From an uncultured archaeon (GTDB lineage: Archaea > Aenigmatarchaeota > Aenigmatarchaeia > QMZP01 > JAFGSV01): DNA of 64,000 nucleotides. The position numbers were made by a program, and so were the translations under genes. A model generated the notes under the pieces. It made no database searches. It saw only the letters and a program-made list of their open reading frames with translations, and was not told the DNA's origin. Below are positions 11,443 through 49,407 of the stretch, in pieces (positions within the stretch are counted from its first letter, which is position 1; every line of letters starts with the position of its first letter). The stretch lies in assembly GCA_964559215.1 (NCBI GenBank), contig CAZLFZ010000001.1, positions 75,287-139,286 on the forward strand, in the 5' to 3' direction.

Positions 11443-14091
11443 ATGGAGTTCCAGGTGCTTGATGCGGACTATGTCTTGGTGAATGAGAAGCCTGTAATCA
11501 GGGTGTTCGGCAAGAATTTGCAGGGCGAGACCGTTTGCGGGTTCTATGAGGGATTCAGACCCTATTTTTATGCTATTGGGGAAGGCATCGAGGAAAAGCT
11601 GGCCGACAATCCCCAGGTCGTATCGATAGAAAAGGTTAAAAGGTGCCTGCCGGTGGGATACCAGGAACCGTCTGATGTTTACATGATAACACTGAAAAAT
11701 CCGGCAAGGACCGTGGAAGTCAGGGAGATGCTCAGGTCAGCTGGCATCGTTCCATACGAAGCTGACATACTCTTCAAGTACAGGTGGATGAACGATTTTG
11801 GCGTTGGTGGCATGAAATGGGTGAGCACTCCAGAAAGCAATGGTGTATCAACCGACAGTGTCTCCTGCCAGAGAAAAATACAGATGAAGAAGGTGAAAGG
11901 GTTAGCGCTGGAATATGATGCGCCGCTGAAATACTTGGCGCTGGATATAGAGACGGTCGGCGAGGACGAAAGCAAAATGCCTGAAGCCGGCAGGGATCCA
12001 ATAGTCATGATATCGCTCGTTTTCGAACCTTTTTACATGGGAAAGAAATCCCTTGTTCTATCAACCAGAACCGGCGATGGCGTCGAACCATGCAATGATG
12101 AAAAGGGGATGCTGCAGAAACTGGTGGAGATAATCAATGATTACGACCCTGACGTTATGACAGGTTACAACATAATCAATTTCGACCTGCCTTACATCCT
12201 GGAGAGGATGAAAAAGAACAGCGTCAAGCCCATTTTTGGCCGGTGCAAACTCAAGTATGTCAGGGCTGACAAATTCGCCAACCGATACAGGATCTCCATC
12301 GTGGGCCGTATTATCGCAGACTCTTTTCAGATTGTCAAGAGGGGGTGGAATCTCAAAAGGTATGGGCTGGACTTCGTCGCACATGAATTGCTCGGAGAAG
12401 AAAAGGGAGATGTGAAGAAGTCCGAGATAGGCAAATTGTGGAAAGGCTCAGCGGAACAGTTCAGACGGCTTGCCAGTTATTGTCTGAAAGACAGCATACT
12501 GGCCATGAACCTCTTGCTCAAAAGGGACTTGTTGGACAAGTACGTTGCGCTGTCTAAAATATCAGGTTCCCTGTTAAATGACATACTTGGCGGGGGCGAA
12601 ATCCAGAGGATCGAGAACTATCTGCTCAGGGAGTTCAACAAGGAGGGCTACATACTCCCTTCTAAGCTGGACAGGAGCCATATCGAAAAGGTGAATGGCG
12701 ACAAAAAGGAGGAGCTGAAGGGGGGCTTTGTGCTGGAACCCAAAAGGGGTATTCATTCAATGGTTCTGGTGCTTGACTTCAAGTCCATGTATCCTTCGCT
12801 CATCAGGACCTACAACATATGCCCTACAACGCTTGTCACGGACGACGGTACGCATGATGTCATAGCAACGCCCATGGGTGCCAAGTTCGTTTCCAAAGGG
12901 GTGAGGTACGGTATAATGCCGAGGATACTTGAAAATCTCATGCATGAAAGGGGGAAGGTGAAGGAGGAGATGAAGCACGCAGATGATAAAGTGAAGAAAG
13001 GGCTTGACATGAAGCAGCTCGCCCTGAAGGTTATGTCAAACGCCTTTTACGGTTATTTTGGCTATTCCAGAGCCAAGATATACAATCTGGACATCGCCGG
13101 CGCAATAACTTCCCTGGGCAGGCACACGATACAGGAAACCGTCAAGACCGTGGAGGATGAATTCGGATACGAGGTTGTTTACGGCGATACCGATTCTGTG
13201 ATGATAAAGGTTCCCACCAAGAACCTGGACGAGGCCGAGGGAATGGGCAGGGATATGTCTGAGAAAATTACGAAAAAGTTGCCGGGGGTGATGGAACTGG
13301 AATTCGAGAAGATATTCAAGAGGTTTCTCCCCCTGACCAAAAAAAGGTACATGGCATGGTCTGTGGAAAGGGGGGAAGATGGGAAGTGGAAAGAAGAGAC
13401 CATCATGAAAGGCATAGAAACTGTGAGGAGGGATTGGTGCGAGCTGACATCAGAAACGATGGGACAGATAATAGAAATAATATTGAAGCACAACGACGTG
13501 AAGGAGGCTGTGCGCTATTTCAGGGATGTGGTGAAAGGCCTGCTGGCTGGCAAGATAGACATAGAAAAGCTCGTGATAACCAAGACCATAACAAAGAAAC
13601 CGGAATCCTACGTCGGTGTCCAGCCTCATGTAGAGGTGATAAAGAAAATGAGGCAGAGAAGTGTTCTGGATCTGCCGGGTGTGGGAGACAGGATAGGTTA
13701 TGTTATAGTCAAGGGAACGCAGCTCTTGTCAAAAAGGGCCGAGGATCCGGCATATATAAAAGAAAAGGGTCTCATGGTGGATTCCCAGTATTATATCAGT
13801 AATCAGATGTTGCCTCCGCTGGAGAGAATATTCTGCGCTATTGGTGTCGACAGGGAGGAGTTGTTTGGTATGGGAAAACAGATGGGCATCACAGAAGCTA
13901 TAAACAATCATAACCAAAGGCATGCTGAACGTGAACCTCTGGTAGTCAACGTGAAGGACATGAACGGCTTCATATGCAAAAAATGCAACAGATCCTACAG
14001 GAGACCACCTCTGATCGGCCGGTGTGAGTGCGGTGGTTCCTTTCTGTTTTCTTCTCCGATTGGGACTGCAGACCGGATCAGAATATCCTAG
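11443..14091 (+). CDS. polB: Family B DNA polymerase with exonuclease domain, uracil-pocket-like N-terminus and a C-terminal Zn-finger extension
   Basis: LDIET, GYNIINFDLPY, YCLKDS, LDFKSMYPS, KVMSNAFYGY, YGDTDS and KKRY motifs; no intein; extension CKKC...CECGG. Confidence 0.97.
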   Translation: MEFQVLDADYVLVNEKPVIRVFGKNLQGETVCGFYEGFRPYFYAIGEGIEEKLADNPQVVSIEKVKRCLPVGYQEPSDVYMITLKNPARTVEVREMLRSAGIVPYEADILFKYRWMNDFGVGGMKWVSTPESNGVSTDSVSCQRKIQMKKVKGLALEYDAPLKYLALDIETVGEDESKMPEAGRDPIVMISLVFEPFYMGKKSLVLSTRTGDGVEPCNDEKGMLQKLVEIINDYDPDVMTGYNIINFDLPYILERMKKNSVKPIFGRCKLKYVRADKFANRYRISIVGRIIADSFQIVKRGWNLKRYGLDFVAHELLGEEKGDVKKSEIGKLWKGSAEQFRRLASYCLKDSILAMNLLLKRDLLDKYVALSKISGSLLNDILGGGEIQRIENYLLREFNKEGYILPSKLDRSHIEKVNGDKKEELKGGFVLEPKRGIHSMVLVLDFKSMYPSLIRTYNICPTTLVTDDGTHDVIATPMGAKFVSKGVRYGIMPRILENLMHERGKVKEEMKHADDKVKKGLDMKQLALKVMSNAFYGYFGYSRAKIYNLDIAGAITSLGRHTIQETVKTVEDEFGYEVVYGDTDSVMIKVPTKNLDEAEGMGRDMSEKITKKLPGVMELEFEKIFKRFLPLTKKRYMAWSVERGEDGKWKEETIMKGIETVRRDWCELTSETMGQIIEIILKHNDVKEAVRYFRDVVKGLLAGKIDIEKLVITKTITKKPESYVGVQPHVEVIKKMRQRSVLDLPGVGDRIGYVIVKGTQLLSKRAEDPAYIKEKGLMVDSQYYISNQMLPPLERIFCAIGVDREELFGMGKQMGITEAINNHNQRHAEREPLVVNVKDMNGFICKKCNRSYRRPPLIGRCECGGSFLFSSPIGTADRIRIS

Positions 14092-14175: not shown

Positions 14176-14310
14176 TTCCACTTGAAATGAGGGGGTCGGT
14201 TTTTGCATCCACCACCATTTCTTCATCTCAAACTTCATATATTCGCGCTTGGTGACTGTTTTTCCTGCAGGGGACCGAAAAATACAGTCTTCCACTTGAA
14301 ATAGGGGGGT
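14176..14310 (+). promoter_or_regulatory. Pair of direct ORB (origin recognition box) repeats
   Basis: TTCCACTTGAAATGAGGGGGT (14176-14196) and TTCCACTTGAAATAGGGGGGT (14290-14310) match the TTCCAsTnGAAA + G-string ORB pattern. Confidence 0.75.
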
Positions 14311-15747: not shown

Positions 15748-16680
15748 CTAGGCGATTTCAATTTTTCTGGTCTTGAGGTCGATGAGCGCGTGATGCCCTC
15801 TTCCAAAAGACACCAGCGTCACTCCTTTGTAATTTTCCGTCCAGGGCTCGTTTTCGGCCGCAACCCATAATATATCAGGGATCGTTTCCAGTATTCTTTC
15901 ACTGCTCGGCGCGGGTATCTTATCTGTCCCTATGTATCTCTTCTTTAGCCATGCCAGGGCGTCTTCCTTCCTTGTCTGTTCATGCGGCCTGTATACGATT
16001 ATCGCCATTTTTTTGTTTCCCTTCTCCAGGAATATCCAAGCTGGATTTGGGATGTCTTTTTCATTTCCTTCCACATCCGTCACGGTGAGGGGGGTCAGTA
16101 CTATGTCAGCGCTTTTGGCTTGGCTGCCCGGCTCTCCTGCCAAAAGCAGCGTGTTGTCCAGGTTGTTAACCACCCTGTTCATGGGGATGTCCGGATATAC
16201 TACTTCCTCCCCAAACAGCGTTTTCTCCCGGACCCAGCCCCGGACACCAACGACGTCGTCAAGCTCCACCTTTTCCTGGCTTCTCACTTCAACCTCTCCC
16301 GTGCCATCCTCGAGAACGAACCCCTGGCTTGTACGCTCTTTTACCATGCCCACTACAGATAACTTGCTGTTGGTTCTTCCTATGTTGTTAATGGAAACTG
16401 CCTCAATTTTTCTCAACAGAAAATCCCTTATCCTTTTATATTTTTCAGCGTTGAGCTGGATGATGTCATCGGGGGTCAGCTCTAACTTGGTTGCAGCGCC
16501 CCTGACGCAGCAGCTCAGCTTTTCAGCGGCTTCCTCATCTACCTGAATAACCATGCCCCTGTTTTTCTTTGTTTTTTCCAGAAAAGCGTCGAGGCCCGTT
16601 GTCTCTATTTTTTTCAAAATCTCTGGCGTTGCCATGACGCCAAGGCTCAACAGCTTCCGGACTATAGCTTCCCTTTCCAT
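15748..16680 (-). CDS. Degenerate PolD small subunit (DP1) homolog: N-terminal helical domain, OB fold and inactivated phosphoesterase remnant
   Basis: OB fold (VVGMVKERT...LEDGTG...DDVVGVRG), YPDIP, NP, WLKKRY, PDIL and YKGVTLV echo DP1; metal-binding motifs absent; directly downstream of cdc6. Confidence 0.72.
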   Translation of the reverse strand: MEREAIVRKLLSLGVMATPEILKKIETTGLDAFLEKTKKNRGMVIQVDEEAAEKLSCCVRGAATKLELTPDDIIQLNAEKYKRIRDFLLRKIEAVSINNIGRTNSKLSVVGMVKERTSQGFVLEDGTGEVEVRSQEKVELDDVVGVRGWVREKTLFGEEVVYPDIPMNRVVNNLDNTLLLAGEPGSQAKSADIVLTPLTVTDVEGNEKDIPNPAWIFLEKGNKKMAIIVYRPHEQTRKEDALAWLKKRYIGTDKIPAPSSERILETIPDILWVAAENEPWTENYKGVTLVSFGRGHHALIDLKTRKIEIA

Positions 16681-16694
16681 AATAAAATCATGTA

Positions 16695-17918
16695 TCAGAA
16701 ATTAATAAAAGCTTCAGGGAACTCGGAGCCCAGCGTTTTCGACATGAGTGAAACGATCTTTTGACTCAGTTGTATGTTTATTTTTCTTGTCCGGCCGTAT
16801 CTTCCCTTGGATATGACCGAGGCGTTTATCACCCCCAGTACATCGAGCTCGGATATGAGGTCGGATACCCTCCTCTGGGTGAGTGTTTTCAGGCCGTTCT
16901 GAATGGCAACTTTCTCGTACAATTCGTAGACTTCGCCTGTTTGCATGTTTTTCTTCTCTTTTTTATGCAAGGATAGTATGGAGAGCATAACCAGTTTGGA
17001 CTGCTTGGGCTGGGCCCGTATTATCTCTATTATCCGGTCTTTGTCGAGTTTTTCCTCCGCCGCGTCAACGTGGTGCTCTGTGACCTTCCTGCCGTTCTCT
17101 CTTTCAGTAAGTTCCGCTGCCACCCTCAGCAGATCCAATGCCTTTCTGGCGTCGCCGTGCTCCTGCGCAGCCAGCGCCGCGCACTTCGTTATCACCGCGT
17201 AATCCACGCCTTCCTCACTGAAGGCTGTCTTGGCTCTCTCAATCAGTATGTCCCGGAGTTCGTTTGCGTTGTAGGGGGGGAATATCATTTCCTCCTCCGA
17301 GAGGGAGGATCTGATTCTGGGATCCAGATTATCTATGAATGAGACCTTGTTGGATATGCCTACTATGGTAGTTTTTGCTCCGCGCAACTCTTGGTTGATT
17401 CTCGTGAGAGTATATAGAATGTCGTCGCCGACCTTCTCCAGCAAGGCGTCTATTTCGTCCAGAACCAGAATAACGTTGCCGCCGTTCTTTTCCAATATTT
17501 TAGAAAGCTGTTTGTACAGGGTGTTTGTAGGCAGGCCCGTGAAGGGAACTTCAAGTCCGAAGCAAGACAGGAGCTGGGCCAGCAGCCTGTACTCCGTGTC
17601 TGCCACCTTTCTCATTTTGCAGTTCACATAAATTATCTTCACCTTTTTGCTGGAGTTGCTGGCGGTCTCCTGCAAGGTGTTGCTTACCTTTTTTATACAC
17701 AGGCTTTTTCCTGTTCCTGTTTTCCCGTAAATGAACACATTGGATGGCTTTTCTCCCCTCAGAACGGGCGCCAGCATCAGGGCCAGTTCCCGTATTTGTT
17801 TTTCTCTGTGTGGGATGTTCTCCGGTGTAAAATCAGCTGACAGCGTGTCCTTGGCCCTGAACAAACCAACACCGTTTGCGTAGGAGCTGAAGATCTCACT
17901 CAGGGAGCGTTGTGTCAT
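16695..17918 (-). CDS. cdc6: Orc1/Cdc6 replication initiator
   Basis: Walker A GKTGTGKS, Walker B LVLDEID, FPPYNANEL, HGDARKALDLL and winged-helix GRYGRTR. Confidence 0.97.
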   Translation of the reverse strand: MTQRSLSEIFSSYANGVGLFRAKDTLSADFTPENIPHREKQIRELALMLAPVLRGEKPSNVFIYGKTGTGKSLCIKKVSNTLQETASNSSKKVKIIYVNCKMRKVADTEYRLLAQLLSCFGLEVPFTGLPTNTLYKQLSKILEKNGGNVILVLDEIDALLEKVGDDILYTLTRINQELRGAKTTIVGISNKVSFIDNLDPRIRSSLSEEEMIFPPYNANELRDILIERAKTAFSEEGVDYAVITKCAALAAQEHGDARKALDLLRVAAELTERENGRKVTEHHVDAAEEKLDKDRIIEIIRAQPKQSKLVMLSILSLHKKEKKNMQTGEVYELYEKVAIQNGLKTLTQRRVSDLISELDVLGVINASVISKGRYGRTRKINIQLSQKIVSLMSKTLGSEFPEAFINF

Positions 17919-26855: not shown

Positions 26856-27374
26856 CTACCACACAACGACTTCAATCGTTGCGATTTTGTTATCGGCTGG
26901 AATAAAACCGAATCTGGTAACTGTGGCACGTGATGCAATGTGATGCCAGATTGTAATATTTTCGGGAGGCGTACGACCGCACACGACGTATTCATGACCG
27001 TCAGTCCCATTCACCACCACATGCATGTGGTGCAATTCGGTGTATGGAAGGTCCTCAATCATACTGAAGTTGTACAACACATCAAGATAGTTGTAGTAGC
27101 ATGTATGGTTAAAATCCTGCATTTTGGTCTTGTCCAATAAAGGCCATTCACTGACAATTCCATTCACAGGATCGTTTAACAAAACCTCGGATATCTGTAT
27201 AGCCTTGCTTTCCAAAAAATTGGACAGAAAGCGCGCATGATATAGGTTCATGTTGATGGACAAATAATTGACGGCATAGACTATGATGCCAAAGAGTATG
27301 AATATCGCTATCACAAATTCGAAGACAAGCTGACCCTTCATTTTATCCATCCCGTATTCCGCTTCGACTCTCAT
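26856..27374 (-). CDS. Type IV pilin-like protein (class III signal peptide)
   Basis: MKG/QLVFEF with Glu at +5, followed by a hydrophobic helix; ATGA-coupled to the upstream platform gene. Confidence 0.7.
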   Translation of the reverse strand: MRVEAEYGMDKMKGQLVFEFVIAIFILFGIIVYAVNYLSINMNLYHARFLSNFLESKAIQISEVLLNDPVNGIVSEWPLLDKTKMQDFNHTCYYNYLDVLYNFSMIEDLPYTELHHMHVVVNGTDGHEYVVCGRTPPENITIWHHIASRATVTRFGFIPADNKIATIEVVVW

Positions 27375-28294
27375 GACGGAAACATGCCCATCTTAGCCAA
27401 AAATATGAAAATGAATATGGAAACAGAAATCATTATCAGGGAATGTTTGGTGCCGGCAACAACGGAGTTCTCTCCCAGCTGCCCTGCTATGAGACCCGAA
27501 GATAGTCCCTGTATCAGCAAAACATAGAAAAACAGCGCTACATAGTAACATGCCATCGATTCAGGGGAGATGTCAAGCATCGAGCAGGTCAAGGAGAATA
27601 ACCCGCATGGAAATGGAATCGCCAACTGGGTGCAAGGATTGCTAAAGCTTGTGAAGCCCATACCTCCCATATCCCCCATTTCGGTTTCTGGCCCTCCCAT
27701 AGATGTAGGACTCATCATAGGCACCAAGATGTATATTATCATAATAACGATGCCGAGGAAAAGGAAGAAAATGCCATAGGTTATCATGACATGCTGGTTG
27801 GTGACACTCTTTCTTTGCTCCTCCGCTTCCCTCAGCATATTCATGTTCTTGGCAGCGGAGTCAAGCGTGGCAACCACGTTCCCCCCGGATTTGTAGGACT
27901 CCTTTATTATGTTCAGAACTTCGATTATGGACGGAGAATCCTTAACCCCCTGCTCGAATATTTCCAGAACCCTCAGAAAAGGCACACCCCAGGATAACTT
28001 ATTGGACATAGTCTTTATTTGGCCAGTCAGCTTTCCATAATTCGTTCTAGCTGCCATGTCTATTGCCGATTCCAGTGTCATCCCCGACCTCTTCGAATCG
28101 GCGAGGTCTCTGATGAAATTCGGAAACTGCCTTTCCACGCTCTTCAGCCATGCGTACTTTGAATACCTGTAGGCAAAATACGGGACAACGGCTATGAACA
28201 TGGCTATTATGACAGAGTTGCCAACAACGCCCGGATCCCCGGCGAGGAGAAGGGAAACCGCAATCACCACAACTCCTATTGCAATTGGTATCAA
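27371..28294 (-). CDS. Type IV pilus/T2SS F-family (TadC-like) membrane platform protein
   Basis: FPNFIRDLADSKRSGMTL...NYGKL...LSWGVPF...SGG; C-terminal GLIAGQLGE. Confidence 0.88.
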   Translation of the reverse strand: MIPIAIGVVVIAVSLLLAGDPGVVGNSVIIAMFIAVVPYFAYRYSKYAWLKSVERQFPNFIRDLADSKRSGMTLESAIDMAARTNYGKLTGQIKTMSNKLSWGVPFLRVLEIFEQGVKDSPSIIEVLNIIKESYKSGGNVVATLDSAAKNMNMLREAEEQRKSVTNQHVMITYGIFFLFLGIVIMIIYILVPMMSPTSMGGPETEMGDMGGMGFTSFSNPCTQLAIPFPCGLFSLTCSMLDISPESMACYYVALFFYVLLIQGLSSGLIAGQLGENSVVAGTKHSLIMISVSIFIFIFLAKMGMFPS

Positions 28295-28339
28295 CGTTGT
28301 TTTTGCTCTGATTCCTAGCTCTATTTTGAATCACCTAAG

Positions 28340-29188
28340 TTATTTTAATGGGGAAAGACCCTTCAATAAAATAATGAATCCCATGGATGTGATAGGAACA
28401 AAAAAGAAAACCAGAAAGGTCTGTACCAGCAGTATGTCTCCGCCTACGAGTGGCGACATCACGCTCGATAAAACGATGAAAAAAAGCGTCCCCACGATGA
28501 TGAGCGTTATGTATATTTCGGTATAAAAGTTTATCTGGTTGGAATAGGAGTCCAGCATCCTTTTATATTGCTGCATGCTCACCGCTGTTTTTTCAGAAAG
28601 ATATTTATAAATGTCCCCCCCTGTCGTTATGACAGATATCATCCCCCACAGTAGCTCAGACCAGACCACTGATGGGGTCCTGTTGGCAACCTTTGCCAAG
28701 GCCGAAGATATGTCAGTGCCAAACATCTTAACATCCCTGTATATCCTGTTGGAGTCTTCCCCGATAACACCTCTCCTTACACTAAGCATCTTGAATATTT
28801 CCATGGGATGGGTTCCCGAGCTTGCCGCTGCAGTCATGGAAGCCACAGCAAAAGGCAAATCCTGTTCTATGCGCGACTGCATGTTCTTTGCTTTCATGCT
28901 GGGATACCAGTAAAAAGCCACAAATGTCGCGCCAGACAACAAAAAAGAAATTATTATGCTGAGGGTGTACGAAAAAATCGCCTTGGCGGTAAAAACCGTT
29001 ACGAAAAAAGAGCCAATCGGCATAGATATGATGAAGGCCAGCAACGAAGAAAAGAGGGAGATTGAAAGATATTCCTGCAAACTCAACTTTATGTGCGCAC
29101 TCTTAATCTTAACCTCAAGGGGATCGAAATAATCAAGATAGGGAGCAACTATACCACCAAACATTCTGACAGACAATTCCCTGAACAT
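28340..29188 (-). CDS. Second T2SS F-family (TadB/TadC-like) platform protein
   Basis: IEQDLPFAVASM...DVKMFGTDISSAL...TPS...TTGGD. Confidence 0.88.
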   Translation of the reverse strand: MFRELSVRMFGGIVAPYLDYFDPLEVKIKSAHIKLSLQEYLSISLFSSLLAFIISMPIGSFFVTVFTAKAIFSYTLSIIISFLLSGATFVAFYWYPSMKAKNMQSRIEQDLPFAVASMTAAASSGTHPMEIFKMLSVRRGVIGEDSNRIYRDVKMFGTDISSALAKVANRTPSVVWSELLWGMISVITTGGDIYKYLSEKTAVSMQQYKRMLDSYSNQINFYTEIYITLIIVGTLFFIVLSSVMSPLVGGDILLVQTFLVFFFVPITSMGFIILLKGLSPLK

Positions 29189-29196
29189 GTTAATTC

Positions 29197-31047
29197 CTAT
29201 CCAGCAGGCTCTTCAATAAATGACATGACATTTTCCGGATTTGTGTAATAACCATTCACAATTCTGCTAACCTCGTTGTAGTCGAACATCTTGAGGTCCC
29301 GCATCCATTGCAATATCCTCTTCCTCCTCAGAATCTCCACTTGCACACTTTCCTGAGTCATCCCGGACATCCTCGCAACGTTTTCCAAGACCTTTGAATC
29401 CATCTTTGTAACAAACCTGTCCTTTATGGGCACCCACTCGAAAATTTTTACGGCAAAAGGCCTGTCATTCTTAATCCCCACCACTTCACGTATTTCAACA
29501 GCCCTCCTGACATCCCTTCCCCTAACCTTCACCCTTTGCAGGAATATTATTATATCGATATTTTCTATGAGCGCGGGAGGCAACGAAATTGGCGGTGTTA
29601 TCAGTCTGTCCACGAGCTGGGGCAATGAGGCAGCGTGTATTGTTGCGAGTGATGGGTGTCCTGTAGCGATCTGCTGGAACAGCACGAAGGCCTCCCGGCC
29701 CCTGACCTCCCCCACCACCAGATAGTCAGGCCTCTGCCTCAGACTCGATTTTAGCAAATCGAACAAGGTCACTTCCCCAACTTTTCCTTTGACGGAAAGG
29801 GGAGACCTGGCAACTTCAGGGACCCAGTGGGTATGGGGCAGCCTGAGCTCGGGGGTGTCTTCAATGGACAATATCTTCAGGTCGGGCTTTATAAAAAGAG
29901 ACAGGGCATTCAGTAACGATGTCTTGCCGGTCGCTGTGCCGCCAGATATGAGGATAGACTTGCCACTCTCTATGGCCATCCACAAATACGCCAGTTGCAT
30001 GCTGTTCAGCGTTCCGTAGTGCAACATGTGCGTCGGAGTCAGTGGGTAGAAGGTGAATTTCCGGATGGTGAAATTCGAGCCCCTCCTAGCTATATCCGTG
30101 CCCATGGTGCACTGCACCCTGCTTCCGTCCGGCAGGGCGGCATCAAGCAGAGGCTCGGCGATTGATATGGACTTTCCGCACTTCTGGGCCAGCTTTAAAA
30201 CGTACTCATCTAACTCGCTTTTGCTCTCGAACCAGAGATTGGTCCTCATTGACCCGAATTTCGGATTTCTGTGATAGACATAGATAGGTATTTTCTCCCC
30301 GTCGCAGCTAATGTCCTCTATCTCGGTGTCTTTCATCATGGGGGTTATCATACTAAGCCCGATTATCTCCTTTTCTATGTTATACTGCAGGATAGGGATT
30401 TTCGCGGGGTCTACATTCGGCATTTCCACGAGAGAGGCCTGAACCTCTTTTCTCAGCATTTGCTTGGCCTTTATTTCTCCTAGCTTGGAAAAATTGACAT
30501 CAAGCCTTTCTTCGACATTCCTTTTTATCCTTTCTATTACCTCTTTGTCTTGGGGTGACATTCTGGGCTCTACGACATTGTAAACCACTGCACCAATTTT
30601 TTCGTCCCATAATATATGGGCATATGCAAAAACAAACTCCCCTCTCTTTGGTTGTGCCGGTATAAGAGGGTACTTCATATCCACATCTCGTAATTCTCGC
30701 ACCTCTATAGGCAGGCCAAATCGCATGCCCTTGATATGAGCCATTCCTGTCGGCAAAGGGACGCCTGCGTACACAATTTCTTTGGTCTCCCCTTCCTTAC
30801 CGCCAGCCTCCTCGGCACCCTTCCCCTTCTCTCCCCCTTTCAACTGTATATTGAGTGCCTGGGAAAGGGGAAAGGGCATCCCCATGAATTGATCCACGGC
30901 CATGCTCTGCACCCTCTCCTGATTTTTCTGAACTTCCTTTTCCTTTAAAGCGATATAACCCGTTTTGAACTTTTTCGCAATGCGCCTGGCACTGAGAGAA
31001 GAAAGTTTTATGTTCTTTTTTTTCACTTTTGGCAATTTTAGGCGCAT
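29197..31047 (-). CDS. Type IV pilus assembly ATPase (TadA/VirB11/FlaI-like)
   Basis: IEDISCDG, LDAALPDGSRVQ, Walker A GGTATGKT, SIEDTPE, RQRPDYLVVGEVRG and TGHPSLATIHA; likely start MRLKLP at 31047. Confidence 0.95.
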   Translation of the reverse strand: MRLKLPKVKKKNIKLSSLSARRIAKKFKTGYIALKEKEVQKNQERVQSMAVDQFMGMPFPLSQALNIQLKGGEKGKGAEEAGGKEGETKEIVYAGVPLPTGMAHIKGMRFGLPIEVRELRDVDMKYPLIPAQPKRGEFVFAYAHILWDEKIGAVVYNVVEPRMSPQDKEVIERIKRNVEERLDVNFSKLGEIKAKQMLRKEVQASLVEMPNVDPAKIPILQYNIEKEIIGLSMITPMMKDTEIEDISCDGEKIPIYVYHRNPKFGSMRTNLWFESKSELDEYVLKLAQKCGKSISIAEPLLDAALPDGSRVQCTMGTDIARRGSNFTIRKFTFYPLTPTHMLHYGTLNSMQLAYLWMAIESGKSILISGGTATGKTSLLNALSLFIKPDLKILSIEDTPELRLPHTHWVPEVARSPLSVKGKVGEVTLFDLLKSSLRQRPDYLVVGEVRGREAFVLFQQIATGHPSLATIHAASLPQLVDRLITPPISLPPALIENIDIIIFLQRVKVRGRDVRRAVEIREVVGIKNDRPFAVKIFEWVPIKDRFVTKMDSKVLENVARMSGMTQESVQVEILRRKRILQWMRDLKMFDYNEVSRIVNGYYTNPENVMSFIEEPAG

Positions 31048-31106
31048 AAAAACCTCGTTAAACGTTGGATATGGGATTAAAACCCTCTTATTCAGGCATG
31101 CAAGTA

Positions 31107-31523
31107 TCACTCTAATATAATATTATATCCTCTCTTATAAATTATAATTTCACCTTTACTGCTTGTCGAATTTCCTGAAAATGTGTACCTCTTACCCAGT
31201 TGATATAAATCCGAAGTGGCGGTAATCCCTGTCTCCCTGATAGTTACATTGAGCCTTGAACCTGTAAAGAGCATATCATATCCCTCACCGCTTATTTTTT
31301 TCGGTATTTTCAATTCAGCAGAAACGTTCAAATGCTCGAATTTGCTGAGCTGCAGGACCTGAGCAGAAATAAGGTCTCTCACGGCCTTTACCTGGTCATT
31401 TGCCGATACATCAGTAAAATAGGACTGGTAGAGCTGAAAAAGCCCGAAGCAAACTATAAATATTGCCACAGAAATCATGAATATCAGCACCTGCTCAAAA
31501 ATAAGTGTCTGGGCTTTTCTCAT
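31107..31523 (-). CDS. Pilin-like protein (class III-like signal peptide)
   Basis: MRKA/QTLIFEQ followed by a hydrophobic helix; lies in the pilus operon. Confidence 0.65.
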   Translation of the reverse strand: MRKAQTLIFEQVLIFMISVAIFIVCFGLFQLYQSYFTDVSANDQVKAVRDLISAQVLQLSKFEHLNVSAELKIPKKISGEGYDMLFTGSRLNVTIRETGITATSDLYQLGKRYTFSGNSTSSKGEIIIYKRGYNIILE

Positions 31524-43696: not shown

Positions 43697-46600
43697 TTAC
43701 TTAGGCATACATCCGTGACTTATGACTTTACACACATCTGAATAATCCCTGGTGCATACCTCTTCCGACAGGTCATTACAAATGGCTGTTTTGAAAGTCC
43801 CCCCAGTTTCTTCTCTTGTCTCGCTCTTTACCTTGTATTCGTAATCTGTATCAAGGTCCAGCGACTTAAGGATAACGCTATGGTCTGTGCTTATACCGCC
43901 GGTGCCTGTCACGGACGTGTAGGAAGTATCAGCAGATTTCTTGTAGCTCACCATGGAATCCGCTGGAATCGATGACATCCATGTTACCGTGACCTCGTTT
44001 GTTGTTCTTTCTAGTGCGTCATTTATTGCTGTTATCCTCAGGTAACAGGTGTCTGATTGCCACTGGCATTTAGAGCTGTACGTGACCTTGCATGACGAAT
44101 CGCTGAGCTTGGTACACCCTGCTGTTGTGAAGGAGCCGCCAGACCTTTCTTTCCCATCGCTCTTCACCTTGAAATCGTATTTTGTCCTCAGATCCAGGCT
44201 TGGGAGCAAGAGCGAATGTTTCTTTTTTGGTTCAGTGGACGCCGGTTCCATCGCACTCCTCCAAGAGGAATCTTCAGACCTCTTGTAGAGAACACGATTA
44301 TCGCTAGTTGGATCCTTGGTTTGCCATTTGATGGTCACACCACTGGTTGTTTCATCGATATTGTATTCTATGTTCCCTATACCGGAATCATCAAACGGGA
44401 CCACCGATGGCTCTTGGCAGACATCGCTGAAAGCGAACAGCGTGTCCTTGGTTTCCCATTTTTTGAACCTAAACGTTGCATTTCCCCTCACGTAATACGT
44501 CTTGGTTGGCCCCCCCGGGTCTGGGGTTGAGGCGAATGTACAGAATATGGCCTGGCCTCTGTTATATTCCAGGCCTTCCCATACATGCGGAGGTCCTCTT
44601 GTTGTGGGCTTTATGGTGCATTTCGGATCCTCGCCGGTCGCTCCCACTTTTTCAAGCTCCTTCGGATAGTCGAGTGTAATCTTGACATACTCCCAGATTA
44701 TTGCGGATTTCTTACCCTCCGCCGATGTGAGGTTGAAGCCTAAGTAGAAGGGTCTCTCTCCCGCAATCAGCGGCTGGTCGAAGGACCCTATGGAGAGCTT
44801 TACGGGGGAGGTTGATATGTGCGAGGGAACTTTCGACAGGGTGAATGTACCCTTCGCTGACCTGTCTCTCCATTCCTGGTCGCTTATGACCGTCAGGGGC
44901 ATCCATGAGCTGACCTCGTAGTCATATTCCACGCTCACGTTGACCCGGATGTACATGTTTCTGTCCGACAATCTTGAAATAACACCACTTTTCATTATCC
45001 TGTCACAGTCGGTATCGAGAGTGAAAAACAAGGGAATTATAAAACCCTTTTCGATCTCATCGGTATTGTATGTTCCTCCATTCCCTATTGTGATCACATC
45101 CTTCAGATTATCCGGCACCTCGACCTTCACCTCGACCATCTTCCCGTCTTCGGGGCCGACATCATGTATGTTCAATGTCATCATAGCCGTGGTCCCTGGA
45201 TATATGGCAGGAACCTGCAGATTCTCTATCTCAACCCCGAATGCACCGGTAGGACCATGGGGGTTCGGCTCATACGTCCCTACCATTATCTGTTGTGCAA
45301 ATCCCATGGGATTGGTGAGCAGCAGGAAGGTCTGGCCGAAGGTGTTCCCCAGCGTACCAAACAGTTCTCCCAGAGGTTCGGTTATGGTCGATACGGCATT
45401 ATGCACCGTTGGCCACCATGCACCGAAGAACCCCTGCCCGACAATCTGCTCACCGGCACCCGCAGAGTAGAAAACAAAAACAACTATCAGCATCAATACA
45501 CCAGTGTAAGGCCTGACCTGTGCGGGAGACGTAATCCCACCTATCAGGCAGATTATCCAGAAGGGCAAGAACACGTTCCCTGCAAGCGTCCCGATGTCGA
45601 GATTTAGTCCAACCCCACCCATAACGCTAATCAGGCCGAATACCATCAGAACCACGAATATGATCTTGTCAAACATCTCGTAGTTCGCTGAGACACCGCT
45701 TCCTGCATGGCCTATGGCCCTTGCGAGGTTCTCCTTCTCTGCTGCTATCGGAAGGATAGCGAAGAACGCCAGCGACAGCCATCCCAGCTCTATGCTCTTG
45801 AAAATGACAAGGAAAACAAATGCCAGCAGAATGGCAACCGGGATTCTGATCAGCCCTTCCATGAATTTGTACGCCTCTTCAGTGCTGTACTCCCCAGGCA
45901 GGCTGAAGTAGGCCGCGAAGCAGAAACCAAGCAGCAGAATGCCCCTGAACGGCAGCTCGGTCGCGAAAAAGCCCCAGCCAAAGAAGAAAAGCATAAAAAT
46001 CTTAAGCAGCGACTTCGTCGCGGCAATGCCCGTGGAATACCTGTTGTCGTAGCCTTTGCCGCTTGCCAGCAGGCTGCCCATATGCCAGGGTTGCCCCTCC
46101 CAATTTTTCACGAGTTTTATCGGCTTGGGGTTAGGCAGTATGTTCATTCCAGCCCAGCAAGCGAAACCTACCAAGAACGGCCAGCCGAACATAGCACCGA
46201 CAACCAGCCCAATCAGGGCAAGGATGAGGCTGAAAGCCGTTCTTTCTGTGTGCTCCCCAATGCCACGGAAAAATTTGCTCATAGCCTTCTCTTTAGACTT
46301 ATACTGATCATACGAATCCTTTTTTGCCCTTTGCTCCTCTGTCAAGAACTTTTCACCCCCCTTTTCTTCCCTACCCAATGACTCCCTGAGGGCTTTCTGT
46401 GCGTTCTCCGAGAAATGTTTGGACTCGTCAGGGTCAAGCCCGTATTGACTTCTCGCGGTGGCCTTGTCAATACCCAGCCTCTTTAAAAAGACGTCAGTAA
46501 TGCCGTGTTTATTTACGTTGGCAGTTATCCTATCCATTTCCCTTTTTATTGACCATTCCTTACCGGATTTTGGGTTATCAATGTCGTAACCCTGATTACG

Positions 46601-47302
46601 CATATCTGTCTTCAGCCTTTCGATTCCCTCAAGCTTTCTCCGCTTTCTCAACTCGAGCCATTGTTGGTAGTCCCTATCTGACAAATCGATGAACCACGGC
46701 TGCGTATGCCCAGGTCCCCTCGGACAATTCCTGTTAACGCAGTACAACCTATATACAACTCCAATTGGCGTACTTTTCTCATCCTCGTATATCTCCTCGT
46801 GGCAATAAGGACACAACTCAGGGATGACCTCTCCTGGATGAACAAGCACAAGTTCGCCTTTCGCGTTTCTCACATAATCGTTATCGCACCTGTCGCAATG
46901 ATATTCACCAAGTGCACCGGCTATTGGATGCAGGGGATACTTCTCATGGCTGAAGCTAAGGCACGAAGGACACCAGAGTGCTCTTGACTTAGGTGGTGGT
47001 GCCTCAGGCGGAGGTTCTGGAGGCGGCTTCGGTGGGGGTCTTTCCCTTCGTTTCTTTGGCAAGTCCTCATCCAAAGCAACACTTTCTGCTCCAACCTCTT
47101 GCATTTCTGCCCTGGCAGCATCAGCCATCCTCCTTAGCTCTTCGGAACTAACATAAGCTTTGGGGTCAGGGTTATAACATGGACAGGATCTTCCAGTTCC
47201 GCCATAATCTTTATTGTCACATCTAAAAAGTCCTCTTCTCACATAAAGCGGCTCTCCGCAAAAAGGACACAAGGGTTTCGAATCCGCTCCTTCTTCTGAC
47301 AT
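43697..47302 (-). CDS. Large multidomain membrane protein: N-terminal Zn ribbons, multi-TM core, SGC-paralog-like domain and two FN3-like/Cys repeats
   Basis: CPFC...C, CPSC...CDRC and CPYC...CVNRNC; about 9-10 hydrophobic helices; YDY...VISDQEWRDR...SP motif; duplicated VT.tW...HS.lL.sLDL.T.Y.yKVKS repeat. Confidence 0.75.
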   Translation of the reverse strand: MSEEGADSKPLCPFCGEPLYVRRGLFRCDNKDYGGTGRSCPCYNPDPKAYVSSEELRRMADAARAEMQEVGAESVALDEDLPKKRRERPPPKPPPEPPPEAPPPKSRALWCPSCLSFSHEKYPLHPIAGALGEYHCDRCDNDYVRNAKGELVLVHPGEVIPELCPYCHEEIYEDEKSTPIGVVYRLYCVNRNCPRGPGHTQPWFIDLSDRDYQQWLELRKRRKLEGIERLKTDMRNQGYDIDNPKSGKEWSIKREMDRITANVNKHGITDVFLKRLGIDKATARSQYGLDPDESKHFSENAQKALRESLGREEKGGEKFLTEEQRAKKDSYDQYKSKEKAMSKFFRGIGEHTERTAFSLILALIGLVVGAMFGWPFLVGFACWAGMNILPNPKPIKLVKNWEGQPWHMGSLLASGKGYDNRYSTGIAATKSLLKIFMLFFFGWGFFATELPFRGILLLGFCFAAYFSLPGEYSTEEAYKFMEGLIRIPVAILLAFVFLVIFKSIELGWLSLAFFAILPIAAEKENLARAIGHAGSGVSANYEMFDKIIFVVLMVFGLISVMGGVGLNLDIGTLAGNVFLPFWIICLIGGITSPAQVRPYTGVLMLIVVFVFYSAGAGEQIVGQGFFGAWWPTVHNAVSTITEPLGELFGTLGNTFGQTFLLLTNPMGFAQQIMVGTYEPNPHGPTGAFGVEIENLQVPAIYPGTTAMMTLNIHDVGPEDGKMVEVKVEVPDNLKDVITIGNGGTYNTDEIEKGFIIPLFFTLDTDCDRIMKSGVISRLSDRNMYIRVNVSVEYDYEVSSWMPLTVISDQEWRDRSAKGTFTLSKVPSHISTSPVKLSIGSFDQPLIAGERPFYLGFNLTSAEGKKSAIIWEYVKITLDYPKELEKVGATGEDPKCTIKPTTRGPPHVWEGLEYNRGQAIFCTFASTPDPGGPTKTYYVRGNATFRFKKWETKDTLFAFSDVCQEPSVVPFDDSGIGNIEYNIDETTSGVTIKWQTKDPTSDNRVLYKRSEDSSWRSAMEPASTEPKKKHSLLLPSLDLRTKYDFKVKSDGKERSGGSFTTAGCTKLSDSSCKVTYSSKCQWQSDTCYLRITAINDALERTTNEVTVTWMSSIPADSMVSYKKSADTSYTSVTGTGGISTDHSVILKSLDLDTDYEYKVKSETREETGGTFKTAICNDLSEEVCTRDYSDVCKVISHGCMPK

Positions 47303-47346: not shown

Positions 47347-49407
47347 TCACGTGTCATCCTCTATTTTTCTGGCCCTTCTCTTTGCCTCTTCCCTCTCCTT
47401 TTCCATAATCTCTCTGGCCCTTTCCCGCGCCTGTCTGGTTTGCTCATCGGCTATTTCCCTCGCCTGGCGAACAGACCCCTCAAATTCCTTGAAGCTCCCT
47501 ATCGGCTTTTTCTTCCCCTCCAGATAGGGAAGGTCGCCCAGGCCAAAGGCCCCCTGCTTCCTTAATTCCTCCAAATCACCACCAGCTTCTATGAATTCTT
47601 TAACCTCAGAATACCCACCGAAATACACCCAGTCCTTGACAAAGCCCCCCGGCTTTTTGCTATCTCTCAGGCCCCTCTTCGCCCTGAATGTAGCCATCCA
47701 ACATTCCTCATCCGATATCCCATATGACTTGAGCTTTACGAAAAGGTCGTGAAACCCCATTTTCAAGGCATAATGTGTGGCGATGACCCTCAGGGCATAG
47801 GCAAATTCAGGCTCTTTAGTCTCTCCCCCTGCCTGTGCATGCAGTGCCCCGCCTTCCTCCGTGGGCCAGTAACCGGAAGTTCCGTAGCGCAGAGTGCCGT
47901 AACCCCTTTCCGCCCCCCTGGCGCTCCTCTCTACATGCCACCCGACTTCGTGCCTGACAAGCCCCTCCGTGTATTTCTCTAAGGGGACATTCAAGACCTT
48001 TTTTCTTGGAACCTCTACCATCTTCTCGGAGAAATGAACCCTGGTTATGGGCGTCTCTGTTATCTCGACCTTCCACCCCTTTATGCCCCTTTCATGCATG
48101 TATTCTTCCATTCTTTTTTTGACAAATTCGGGGTTATACGGATAGGTCTTTCCACTCCCGCCCATTTCGGATTCCGCGTGTTTTTTACAAACCCCTTCCG
48201 CTTTTTTCACAGTCCCAGAATTTGGAAGCCCATAAACCCGAATGGAATATTTCGTTATCGCGGGGGTTCCTATCAGCCTTAAAAATTTCAACTTGCTCAT
48301 GAGGTCTATCCTCTTCTTCTCGATAATCCTCCCCCACGGGCTCTCCTTATAATCAATGCGCAGGTCCCTCAAGGACCTCATTATTTCTCCGGTCTCCCTC
48401 ATCACATCCTTCTCGACGAATTTAAGGCCCTCGTACTCAAACCTCGGATTATAGACCTCGCCCTTCATTAATGCCTCAAAGAATTTCCCCTTTTCCTCGT
48501 TCAGATTTGTCGGCGTTAAAAATATGTAAAGATTGTTTATGTCATATTTCTCGATTATTTCGGTAAGCTTTTCGTCCACCCCCCTCAGAACCGCATCGCT
48601 TTCAGGCAACCCCGGCCCGACACCGCCCATTTTACCTGCAATATCCCTGGCCCTTCTCTCTGCCACTTCCCCCTCTTTTTTCACAATCTCTCTGGCCCTT
48701 TCCCTTGCCTGTCTGGTTTCTTCTTCAGCTATTTTCCTCGCCCGTTTCTCAGCCTCCGATTTCCCGGCGTCAGCCAACTCCTGCTTCCTCGATAGCGCTT
48801 TTAACCCTCTTTTTTGCTGTATGCTGCCCATCGGCCCGACCTCCCAGTGCCTGTGATACACCATTCTACCATGCCCTGGGAATACGAGGGCTTCCCCCCT
48901 CCCATGCTTTTTCGCTTCTTCTGCGCTTTCCATCAGTTCGTGTGTCTTCGCCAGCTTGCCCTTTTTGTACAGATTCTCTGCTTGGCTTTTGCTTATGCCG
49001 TCAGGATTCTGTTGTGAGAACCCCCGCGGTCCCCAGTACCGCACCATAGACCAGGCACCCGGAATGGCACTTGACTCAACAACAAGCTTTCCTGGGTCTT
49101 TGATAACAATCTCTTCAAGCACACCCTTCTTCGCCAGGTTGCTTGCCCTGACCCATATGTTAACAGCTTTTCTGAGCGGTATATCATCCATTACCGCTTC
49201 CTTAACGCTGGGATTCGCCTCTACTACGTCCTTTAAGCGCTCACTGGTTTCAGAACTCAAGGCATTTGATAATTTTTTCAGCTTGCCAAATTCAAAATAA
49301 TCTTCGGTGCGCACCGGGCATAGGGGATTGCTGCACTTGTAAAGTTCCCCTCCCGACTCGAATTTTCTGGCTTCCAGTTCATCATTGCAGTACGGACATT
49401 TTGGCAT
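47347..49407 (-). CDS. Zn-ribbon plus DUF1704/MATCAP-like gluzincin metallopeptidase
   Basis: N-terminal CPYC...CSNPLC; YNPRFEY; HEVGWH (HExxxH); TEEGGA; RAKRG; F.KD.VY..GY. Confidence 0.75.
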   Translation of the reverse strand: MPKCPYCNDELEARKFESGGELYKCSNPLCPVRTEDYFEFGKLKKLSNALSSETSERLKDVVEANPSVKEAVMDDIPLRKAVNIWVRASNLAKKGVLEEIVIKDPGKLVVESSAIPGAWSMVRYWGPRGFSQQNPDGISKSQAENLYKKGKLAKTHELMESAEEAKKHGRGEALVFPGHGRMVYHRHWEVGPMGSIQQKRGLKALSRKQELADAGKSEAEKRARKIAEEETRQARERAREIVKKEGEVAERRARDIAGKMGGVGPGLPESDAVLRGVDEKLTEIIEKYDINNLYIFLTPTNLNEEKGKFFEALMKGEVYNPRFEYEGLKFVEKDVMRETGEIMRSLRDLRIDYKESPWGRIIEKKRIDLMSKLKFLRLIGTPAITKYSIRVYGLPNSGTVKKAEGVCKKHAESEMGGSGKTYPYNPEFVKKRMEEYMHERGIKGWKVEITETPITRVHFSEKMVEVPRKKVLNVPLEKYTEGLVRHEVGWHVERSARGAERGYGTLRYGTSGYWPTEEGGALHAQAGGETKEPEFAYALRVIATHYALKMGFHDLFVKLKSYGISDEECWMATFRAKRGLRDSKKPGGFVKDWVYFGGYSEVKEFIEAGGDLEELRKQGAFGLGDLPYLEGKKKPIGSFKEFEGSVRQAREIADEQTRQARERAREIMEKEREEAKRRARKIEDDT
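47369..48743. repeat. Dispersed ~96-nt duplication (47369-47464 and 48647-48743, offset 1278 nt) encoding a charged helix
   Basis: AREIADEQTRQARERAREIMEKEREEAKRRAR versus ARKIAEEETRQARERAREIVKKEGEVAERRAR; shared DNA words such as ATCTCTCTGGCCCTTTCCC. Confidence 0.8.

Follow-up and report, generated by a model that had tools for sequence, protein, structure and literature searches.

A nuclease-dead, minimised DP1 homologue encoded beside cdc6 in an Aenigmatarchaeota genome: most likely the B-subunit of a neighbouring PolB

The stretch of archaeal DNA analysed here (the 'window': 64,000 nucleotides (nt) of contig CAZLFZ010000001.1, from an uncultured member of the Aenigmatarchaeota) encodes, 14 nt downstream of an orc1/cdc6 initiator gene, a 310-residue protein that a first-pass annotation, made from the letters alone, had described as a shortened and nuclease-dead homologue of DP1, the small subunit of the archaeal polymerase PolD. 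The protein (here termed 'mini-DP1') is best explained as a DP1 homologue that is non-catalytic and reduced in structure, and its most likely role is that of B-subunit to a B-family DNA polymerase (PolB) encoded nearby, an explanation to which a probability of roughly 0.85 can be given. A replicase composed of such a pair is already known from the studies of Kazlauskas, Krupovic, Guglielmini, Forterre and Venclovas (NAR 2020; PMC7544198) and of Feng et al. (2025, Nat Ecol Evol; PMC12680538). The present identification is a rediscovery, and the pair in the window fits their description in every testable respect.

The identity of mini-DP1 becomes apparent from profile and structure comparisons. 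Searches against Pfam returned nothing significant for the protein (neither PF04042, DNA_pol_E_B, nor Metallophos), and the NCBIfam DP1 model NF003118 matched residues 62-171, corresponding to the OB region only, with an E value of 1.7e-16 and a score of 60 bits that falls below the curated cut-off of 445. A profile constructed from 29 members of the mini-DP1 family (A1) was matched to solved DP1 chains (E 1.7e-14) in two segments, the first of which pairs residues 61-169 with the DP1 OB domain (6knb_A 133-259; 5ihe_A 75-202) and the second of which pairs residues 232-295 with the last part of the phosphodiesterase (PDE) domain of DP1 (6knb_A 428-495). When aligned by hhalign with a true DP1 of 510 residues used as a reference (P0041, which carries PF04042, PF00149 and PF01336), mini-DP1 could be matched end to end, its residues 1-296 corresponding to residues 1-473 of the reference (probability 99.7, E 1.3e-26).

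An AlphaFold2 model of mini-DP1, generated from the A1 alignment, displayed a mean predicted local distance difference test score (pLDDT) of 84.6 and a predicted template modelling score (pTM) of 0.75. The question of whether the fold is DP1-like, which the first-pass annotation had raised as a check on its own proposal, was settled in its favor by a Foldseek search of that model against the PDB, in which the top 44 matches were all DP1 or eukaryotic B-subunits (of Pol alpha, delta, epsilon and zeta, from human and yeast), with P. abyssi DP1 matched at an E value of 5e-13 (TMq ~0.6) and eukaryotic B-subunits at E values of 2e-10 to 5e-5; the ranks that follow are occupied by lone OB folds, such as those of RPA and Ten1. 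Mini-DP1 belongs to the DP1 / DNA polymerase B-subunit superfamily, and its PDE part is a reduced remnant.

The same alignments and model allow the anatomy of the protein to be described (Table 1). The N-terminal domain, in which the model places helices at residues 3-12, 19-28 and 30-39, is aligned by hhalign with residues 1-45 of P0041 (IVRKLLSLGVMATPEIL opposite IVRKLLDEGVLVSPEIV), and is followed by a disordered segment (residues 39-51) and then by a long helix (residues 70-89) that runs into the OB fold. The latter comprises five strands between residues 106 and 161 and harbors an LEDxTG motif that is invariant across the family, while the connector that follows it (YPDIP, residues 162-166) lies opposite FPDFP in the reference DP1. 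The remainder of the protein, from residue 170 to residue 310, is beta-rich in the model, with one helix (residues 238-247); this PDE remnant contains ~140 residues versus ~270 in P0041. Additional DP1 hallmarks are found at PNP (211-213), LKKRY (245-249), IPDI (267-270), YKGVT (284-288) and IDLKTRK (300-306), and each of the hallmarks that had been listed for the protein was found opposite its counterpart in P0041. Conservation within the family is strongest at the non-catalytic motifs held in common with DP1, namely the OB core, YPDIP, NP, LKKR, PDI, YKGV and the terminal hairpin.

The catalytic positions, on the other hand, have been replaced or removed. At the position of motif I (DxH) in P0041, mini-DP1 displays G185 and Q187; the segment containing motif II (GD) is deleted entirely; motif III (GNHD) is replaced by L-T-V-T (residues 198-201), the motif IV histidine by R230, and motif V (GHxH) by A-A-E-N (residues 274-277). 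The LRKRH of P0041 is likewise LKKRY in mini-DP1, so that its RH has become R248-Y249. A string search of the protein found no DxH, GD, GNH or GHxH, and metal-ligand motifs I-V were found at the aligned positions in none of the 29 family members. Histidine occurs in mini-DP1 only at residues 233, 296 and 297, and two members of the family contain no histidine at all. Because the ligand motifs are replaced or deleted and histidines are few or absent, canonical two-metal phosphoesterase chemistry can be excluded for mini-DP1. The loss of the calcineurin-like ligands and the change from RH to RY, both of which had been noted at the outset, are borne out.

The shortened form of the protein is not peculiar to the window. 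A profile was searched exhaustively against 1.84 billion representatives; with clustering at 50% identity, 230 clusters of the mini-DP1 family were recovered at E<=1e-30, and the best 150 matches were all between 161 and 378 residues in length. Because all of these best matches are short, the short form represents the norm of the clade rather than a truncated gene call. Across the 29 family members, which are 31-66% identical to the protein from the window, 14 columns are invariant and a further 21 are nearly so; the stable length, the conserved columns and the confidently predicted fold together argue for purifying selection on mini-DP1. Two other possibilities were considered and rejected: viral or mobile-element carriage, as no relative of mini-DP1 turned up when IMG/VR viral contigs were scanned, and a role in defence, as PADLOC gives no match to it.

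The proposed partner is encoded 1,656 nt away from mini-DP1, in convergent orientation with an intervening gene for a TctA-family transporter. PolB retains intact exonuclease motifs (ExoI, DIET168; ExoII, NIINFD243; ExoIII, YCLKD346) as well as intact polymerase motifs (motif A at 445, motif B at 529 and motif C, YGDTDS580), and its best sequence match in the PDB is the catalytic subunit of human Pol delta (6e-118), marginally ahead of the PolB of Thermococcales (2.6e-114). Near its C-terminus, residues 811-820 may be regarded, by analogy, as a 'PCNA-interacting protein' (PIP)-like box, in which the motif G[KR]Qxx[LIM] (residues 811-816) is conserved in all orthologues and presumably occupies the place of the PCNA-binding box with which canonical archaeal PolB terminates, as in Thermococcales C-termini. 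Beyond this point the chain continues through a linker of ~25 residues into a single zinc ribbon (CKKCNRSYRRPPLIGRCECGG; C845-x2-C-x12-C-x-C-GG) and ends after about 15-18 further residues, an arrangement which suggests that a zinc module was appended behind an already existing PIP-like C-terminus.

The origin of that module could be traced with a profile of the PolB tails of 15 orthologues (A3), in which four invariant cysteines are accompanied by P-L-G and CGG motifs. Compared with the whole PDB, this profile produced only three significant matches, all of them to the Zn-III module of DP2, the large subunit of PolD, among them those to T. kodakarensis DP2 (6knb_B 1129-1165, E 9.5e-9) and P. 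abyssi DP2 (6hms_B 1121-1157, E 2e-7); NCBIfam DP2 models also match the PolB ribbon (E 3e-4). The alignment spans FxCxKCNxxYRRPPLxGKCxxCGG and takes in the KxRRxP loop of DP2, which corresponds to YRRPP in PolB. Cryo-electron microscopy of PolD has placed that loop of DP2 within an electronegative groove between the OB and PDE domains of DP1, and a 20-residue peptide containing it binds DP1 with nanomolar affinity (PMC6355029). In DP2 the Zn-III module is succeeded by a bundle of helices, which in the same structure touches loops within the PDE domain of DP1 (PMC6355029). That bundle is missing from PolB, and the matching PDE loops are missing from mini-DP1; the interface would appear to have been co-reduced, in both partners, to its zinc-ribbon core. 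The earlier description of the polymerase as one bearing the C-terminal domain (CTD) of DP2 at a distance of 1.7 kb is correct as to its position, but only the Zn-III ribbon and a short tail, rather than the whole DP2 CTD, are present.

The association of the two genes was examined in a survey of GTDB (one genome per species), which yielded 20 loci (L001-L020), of which 11 are labelled Aenigmatarchaeota or Aenigmarchaeota, seven 'uncultured archaeon' and two Nanoarchaeota; a protein record, P0009, also bears the name Candidatus Aenigmarchaeota. Orthologues of 59-60% identity, set in conserved synteny, would place the window itself in this lineage. Mini-DP1 and cdc6 are co-oriented in all 19 loci that show both genes, and 18 of these loci have the two genes -4 to 129 nt apart; in the window, the cdc6 stop and the mini-DP1 start are separated by the 14-nt spacer TACATGATTTTATT, and the two genes probably form a single operon. 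Wherever the C-terminus of PolB is visible (15 of 15 loci), a PolB with the same CxxC-x12-CxC ribbon is encoded 48-3,140 nt from mini-DP1, and the distribution of mini-DP1 is in this way tied to that of the ribbon-bearing PolB; four loci that gave no PolB match are contigs of 3-8 kb that stop before the position of that gene. The loci that diverge most, L019 (9983-13753) and L020 (9989-14678), have PolB behind mini-DP1 on the same strand, at distances of 48 and 106 nt, respectively. In L019, cdc6 lies directly upstream and overlaps the start of mini-DP1 by 4 nt, whereas in L020 it is found ~2.4 kb away. The order cdc6/mini-DP1/PolB in L019 presumably mirrors the oriC-cdc6-DP1-DP2 operon of Thermococcales. 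The PolB open reading frame (ORF) of L020 extends for at least 1235 residues, without a recognizable YGDTDS in its visible part, before it runs off the contig, and possibly contains an intein.

Taken with published structures of PolD and of eukaryotic polymerases and with a published yeast two-hybrid experiment, these features point to a mechanism in which the zinc ribbon of PolB would dock on mini-DP1, in the groove that separates its OB fold from its PDE remnant, generating a two-subunit replicase. PolB would supply both the polymerase and the exonuclease (proofreading) activities, while mini-DP1 would act as a purely structural scaffold linking PolB with the CMG helicase. The N-terminal domain of DP1 (DP1N) binds the C-terminal domain of Gins51 in Thermococcus (PMC9023282), and the corresponding domain of mini-DP1 would probably tether the polymerase to GINS/CMG in similar fashion, as do the N-terminal domains of eukaryotic B-subunits. 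The two-subunit replicase put forward by the first-pass annotation is supported, insofar as sequence and modelling can speak to it, although the idea is not new (PMC7544198, PMC12680538).

The published work in fact anticipates most of this picture. Kazlauskas et al. defined a PolB group, B6, in which the 'B6-aenigma1' enzymes carry one C-terminal zinc motif that is most similar to DP2 Zn-III; they also reported that DP1 is inactive in Aenigmarchaeota and that DP2 is missing from most of them, and proposed that a B6 PolB replaced DP2 and that the polymerase's own exonuclease permitted the inactivation of DP1 (PMC7544198). Feng et al. subsequently combined AlphaFold3 with yeast two-hybrid experiments and found that DP1 interacts with 'PolB-DP2CTD' in Aenigmatarchaeota and Baldrarchaeia, described the Aenigmatarchaeota PolB CTD as shorter and degenerate, and attributed the two-zinc 'B6-aenigma2' sequences to Baldrarchaeia contamination (PMC12680538). 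The inactive-DP1 group of Aenigmarchaeota ('Aenigma_GB_GCA_002789635-like'), together with B6-aenigma1 PolB, matches the window pair in lineage, in the inactivation of DP1, in the one-zinc PolB and in the lack of a DP2 (none being seen in the window); no essential difference separates the published system from that of the window, an identity that is taken from these shared properties. What is added here is incremental and may already be contained in those reports: how much of the PDE domain has been deleted, the apparent co-reduction of the interface, the probable operon with cdc6 and its origin boxes (described below), the gene order of L019 and L020 and the conserved, intact metallophosphoesterase nearby.

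Comparison with other members of the superfamily clarifies what has been retained and what has been discarded. Canonical DP1 (for example that of P. abyssi; PDB 5ihe, 6hmf and 6t8h) displays the same DP1N-OB-PDE order, the same non-catalytic motifs and the same C-terminal beta-hairpin as mini-DP1, and also docks a Zn-III module, as is proposed for mini-DP1. In contrast to the canonical protein (~480-720 residues), mini-DP1 contains only 310 residues, lacks all seven of the ligands in motifs I-V as well as the segment containing motif II, and displays shortened loops elsewhere in its PDE domain; furthermore, the partner of canonical DP1 is DP2, whereas that proposed for mini-DP1 is PolB. The eukaryotic B-subunits (p50/Pol31 of Pol delta, p59/Dpb2 of Pol epsilon and p70/Pol12 of Pol alpha) resemble mini-DP1 in combining an inactivated PDE domain with an OB fold, and bind a C-terminal zinc module of a B-family catalytic subunit that possesses its own active sites. 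However, the PDE domain is of full size in the eukaryotic proteins (about 410-570 residues) and halved in mini-DP1, and the eukaryotic partner CTD contains two metal sites and a helical bundle, as opposed to the single zinc ribbon of the window PolB. The PolB3-DP2CTD/DP1 pair of Baldrarchaeia (Feng et al. 2025) follows the same logic, in which DP2 has been lost, DP1 has been kept and PolB has been fused to a DP2-derived CTD; that CTD is of full length and resembles those of DP2 and the eukaryotic enzymes, while the CTD of Aenigmatarchaeota is shorter and degenerate.

Several observations weigh against the assignment of mini-DP1 to PolB. In several PolB orthologues the docking loop has AR, PR, AL or DT in place of its RR pair, and the interface between PolB and mini-DP1 may consequently differ from that of PolD; in the same vein, the predicted structure of the Aenigmatarchaeota CTD is reported to differ from that of the DP2 CTD (PMC12680538). 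The published yeast two-hybrid result is not a reconstitution, and was obtained with a pair that differs from the protein in the window (PMC12680538). The suggested tethering to GINS is drawn purely by analogy. Finally, the absence of DP2 is seen directly only within this 64-kb window and is otherwise taken from the literature, where it is described for 'most', rather than all, Aenigmarchaeota (PMC7544198). This last point leads to the possibility that mini-DP1 still serves as small subunit in an ordinary PolD, with an intact DP2 encoded elsewhere in a genome of which only 64 kb are visible and with some other role for the PolB ribbon; indeed, the alignment of Kazlauskas et al. includes Aenigmarchaeota DP2 sequences. 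Such an arrangement is nevertheless very improbable: no DP2 or other replication gene was found among the larger ORFs of the window, two independent surveys report that Aenigmatarchaeota keep DP1 and lack DP2 (PMC7544198, PMC12680538), a PolD built upon mini-DP1 would be unable to proofread, mini-DP1 has lost the PDE loops that touch the DP2 helical bundle, and its gene is tightly linked to that of a PolB that bears the Zn-III docking module.

It can also be imagined that mini-DP1 acts independently of PolB, as a replisome or origin scaffold whose DP1N and OB domains would link partners such as Orc1/Cdc6, GINS or primase, and that its linkage to PolB reflects only a conserved order of genes around the origin. 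The apparent co-transcription with cdc6 and the retention of DP1N, a known GINS-binding module (PMC9023282), are in keeping with this possibility, and the neighborhood of ~12 kb is syntenic as a whole, so that the proximity of PolB, considered by itself, argues only weakly for a partnership. It is, however, unlikely as a complete explanation, given that PolB has acquired exactly the zinc module that docks on DP1, that the residues best conserved between the family and true DP1 are located in the OB fold and the PDE remnant and not in DP1N alone, and that an interaction between DP1 and the PolB CTD was detected by yeast two-hybrid within the phylum (PMC12680538). As an additional role for a PolB-bound mini-DP1, a scaffold function is compatible with the B-subunit assignment. 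The notion that mini-DP1 is a decaying, functionless relic of DP1 left behind after the loss of DP2 draws on its missing catalytic motifs and on the large deletion in its PDE domain, but is hardly tenable and has effectively been refuted by the pattern of conservation: the reading frame is intact, the length is stable over at least 230 clusters, and the invariant and nearly invariant positions noted above are accompanied by a confident fold and a conserved position in the operon.

One further proposal concerns a gene encoding an intact calcineurin-like metallophosphoesterase, whose five catalytic motifs (D-x-HG, GDFTD, PGNH, H-PP and AHIHE) are conserved in 16 orthologues. The gene is divergent from cdc6 in most loci, and in four (L011, L015, L016 and L018) it follows mini-DP1 directly and in the same orientation. 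The proposal, which is improbable, holds that the phosphodiesterase chemistry lost from mini-DP1 was handed to this separate enzyme, which would then be a trans-acting nuclease or phosphatase of the replisome, in effect the other half of a 'split' DP1. A milder novel reading concerns the order of genes in L019 and L020 (with cdc6 adjacent only in L019), which may preserve an ancestral oriC-cdc6-DP1-DP2 operon in which DP2 was replaced in situ by PolB with its Zn-III module. A fission in which the metallophosphoesterase would represent the lost PDE domain of DP1 is unsupported: BLASTP against true DP1 returned only the generic GD...GNHD signature at an E value of 0.022, the sole PDB sequence match of the enzyme is the hypothetical protein aq_1956, and the gene is not found in the neighborhoods of L019 or L020. 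The enzyme also matches the PADLOC candidate model PDC-S10 (E 4e-18).

The assignment of mini-DP1 to a replicase is accompanied by a genomic setting that resembles a replication origin. The gene upstream of mini-DP1 is a clear initiator homologue (500 bits against NCBIfam NF001625). A search for a pattern resembling the origin recognition box (ORB), consisting of TCCACTNGAAAY followed by a run of G, identified four matches in the window versus none expected from shuffled sequence, in agreement with the original suggestion that the pair would be encoded around oriC. Two of the boxes (TCCACTAGAAACACGGGGG and TCCACTGGAAACGATGGTGTGGGGG) are inverted relative to one another upstream of cdc6 and flank an AT-rich stretch, a layout that is classical for an archaeal oriC, and an origin at this point is, from its sequence features, probable. 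The other two form a direct repeat, separated by 114 nt, in the 3' intergenic region between PolB and the TctA gene; this second pair may be an additional site of Orc1 binding, or may itself mark the actual origin, apart from the inverted pair. ORB-like boxes recur at both equivalent sites in related loci, those at the PolB/TctA site being found in ~11 of them (L001-L006, L008-L010, L015 and L018).

Table 1. Coordinates of the genes, domains and candidate origin elements of the window
Feature	Coordinates	Strand	Basis or remarks
B-family DNA polymerase (PolB), 882 residues	11443..14091	+	Pfam DNA_pol_B 1.3e-109, exo1 1.7e-33
PIP-box-like motif GKQMGITEAI, PolB residues 811-820	13873..13902	+	G[KR]Qxx[LIM] conserved in all orthologues
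Single zinc ribbon and short tail, PolB residues 845-882	13975..14088	+	homologous to DP2 Zn-III
ORB-like box, PolB/TctA 3' intergenic region	14177..14195	+	pattern search
Second ORB-like box, direct repeat 114 nt from the preceding box	14291..14309	+	pattern search
Mini-DP1 gene (nuclease-dead, B-subunit-like protein)	15748..16680	-	ORF, 310 residues
PDE-domain remnant, mini-DP1 codons 170-310	15751..16173	-	hhalign motif mapping, metal ligands gone
OB fold, mini-DP1 codons 96-161 (LEDGTGE 123-129)	16198..16395	-	five strands; profile and NCBIfam matches
DP1N-like three-helix N-terminal domain, mini-DP1 codons 1-40	16561..16680	-	helices of the model
orc1/cdc6 initiator gene, 407 residues, 14 nt upstream of mini-DP1	16695..17918	-	Pfam Cdc6_C, Cdc6_lid, AAA
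ORB-like box upstream of cdc6	18035..18053	-	pattern search
AT-rich stretch between the inverted boxes, candidate DNA-unwinding element	18075..18140	.	read from sequence
ORB-like box, inverted relative to the box at 18035..18053	18151..18175	+	pattern search
Calcineurin-like metallophosphoesterase, 226 residues	18295-18975	+	five catalytic motifs intact

Several additional genes of the window deserve a brief description. Adjacent to the metallophosphoesterase, and syntenic with it in nearly all related loci, is a gene (18979-19782, minus strand) for a protein of 267 residues that combines an XRE-type helix-turn-helix domain (residues 53-104) with an uncharacterized C-terminal domain. Two T2SSF-like proteins and a T2SSE/PilB-like ATPase (27371-31110, minus strand) correspond to an archaeal type IV pilus or archaellum-like assembly system. 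A protein of 686 residues (47347-49407, minus strand) matches the Pfam family MATCAP (microtubule-associated tyrosine carboxypeptidase, PF08014; E 4e-24), which is unexpected in a DPANN archaeon. Two long ORFs, both on the minus strand, encode proteins of 1201 residues (43697-47302; only a C-terminal purple-acid-phosphatase-N/fn3-like domain) and 1927 residues (54119-59902; no Pfam match); both were considered as candidates for DP2 and rejected, and their products are probably surface proteins.

Among archaeal arrangements, an inactivated DP1 paired with a PolB that bears a zinc module derived from DP2 comes closest in its logic to the eukaryotic polymerases alpha, delta and epsilon, and for that reason bears on the origin of eukaryotic replicases. 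This significance has already been recognized, and in part tested, in the studies cited above (PMC7544198, PMC12680538); to these, the window adds a clean and well-assembled example in which the origin context of the two genes is visible. If the interface between the two proteins has truly been pared down to a zinc ribbon seated on an OB fold and a PDE domain of half its usual size, then the pair would provide an attractive minimal system for structural and biochemical work on B-subunit function.

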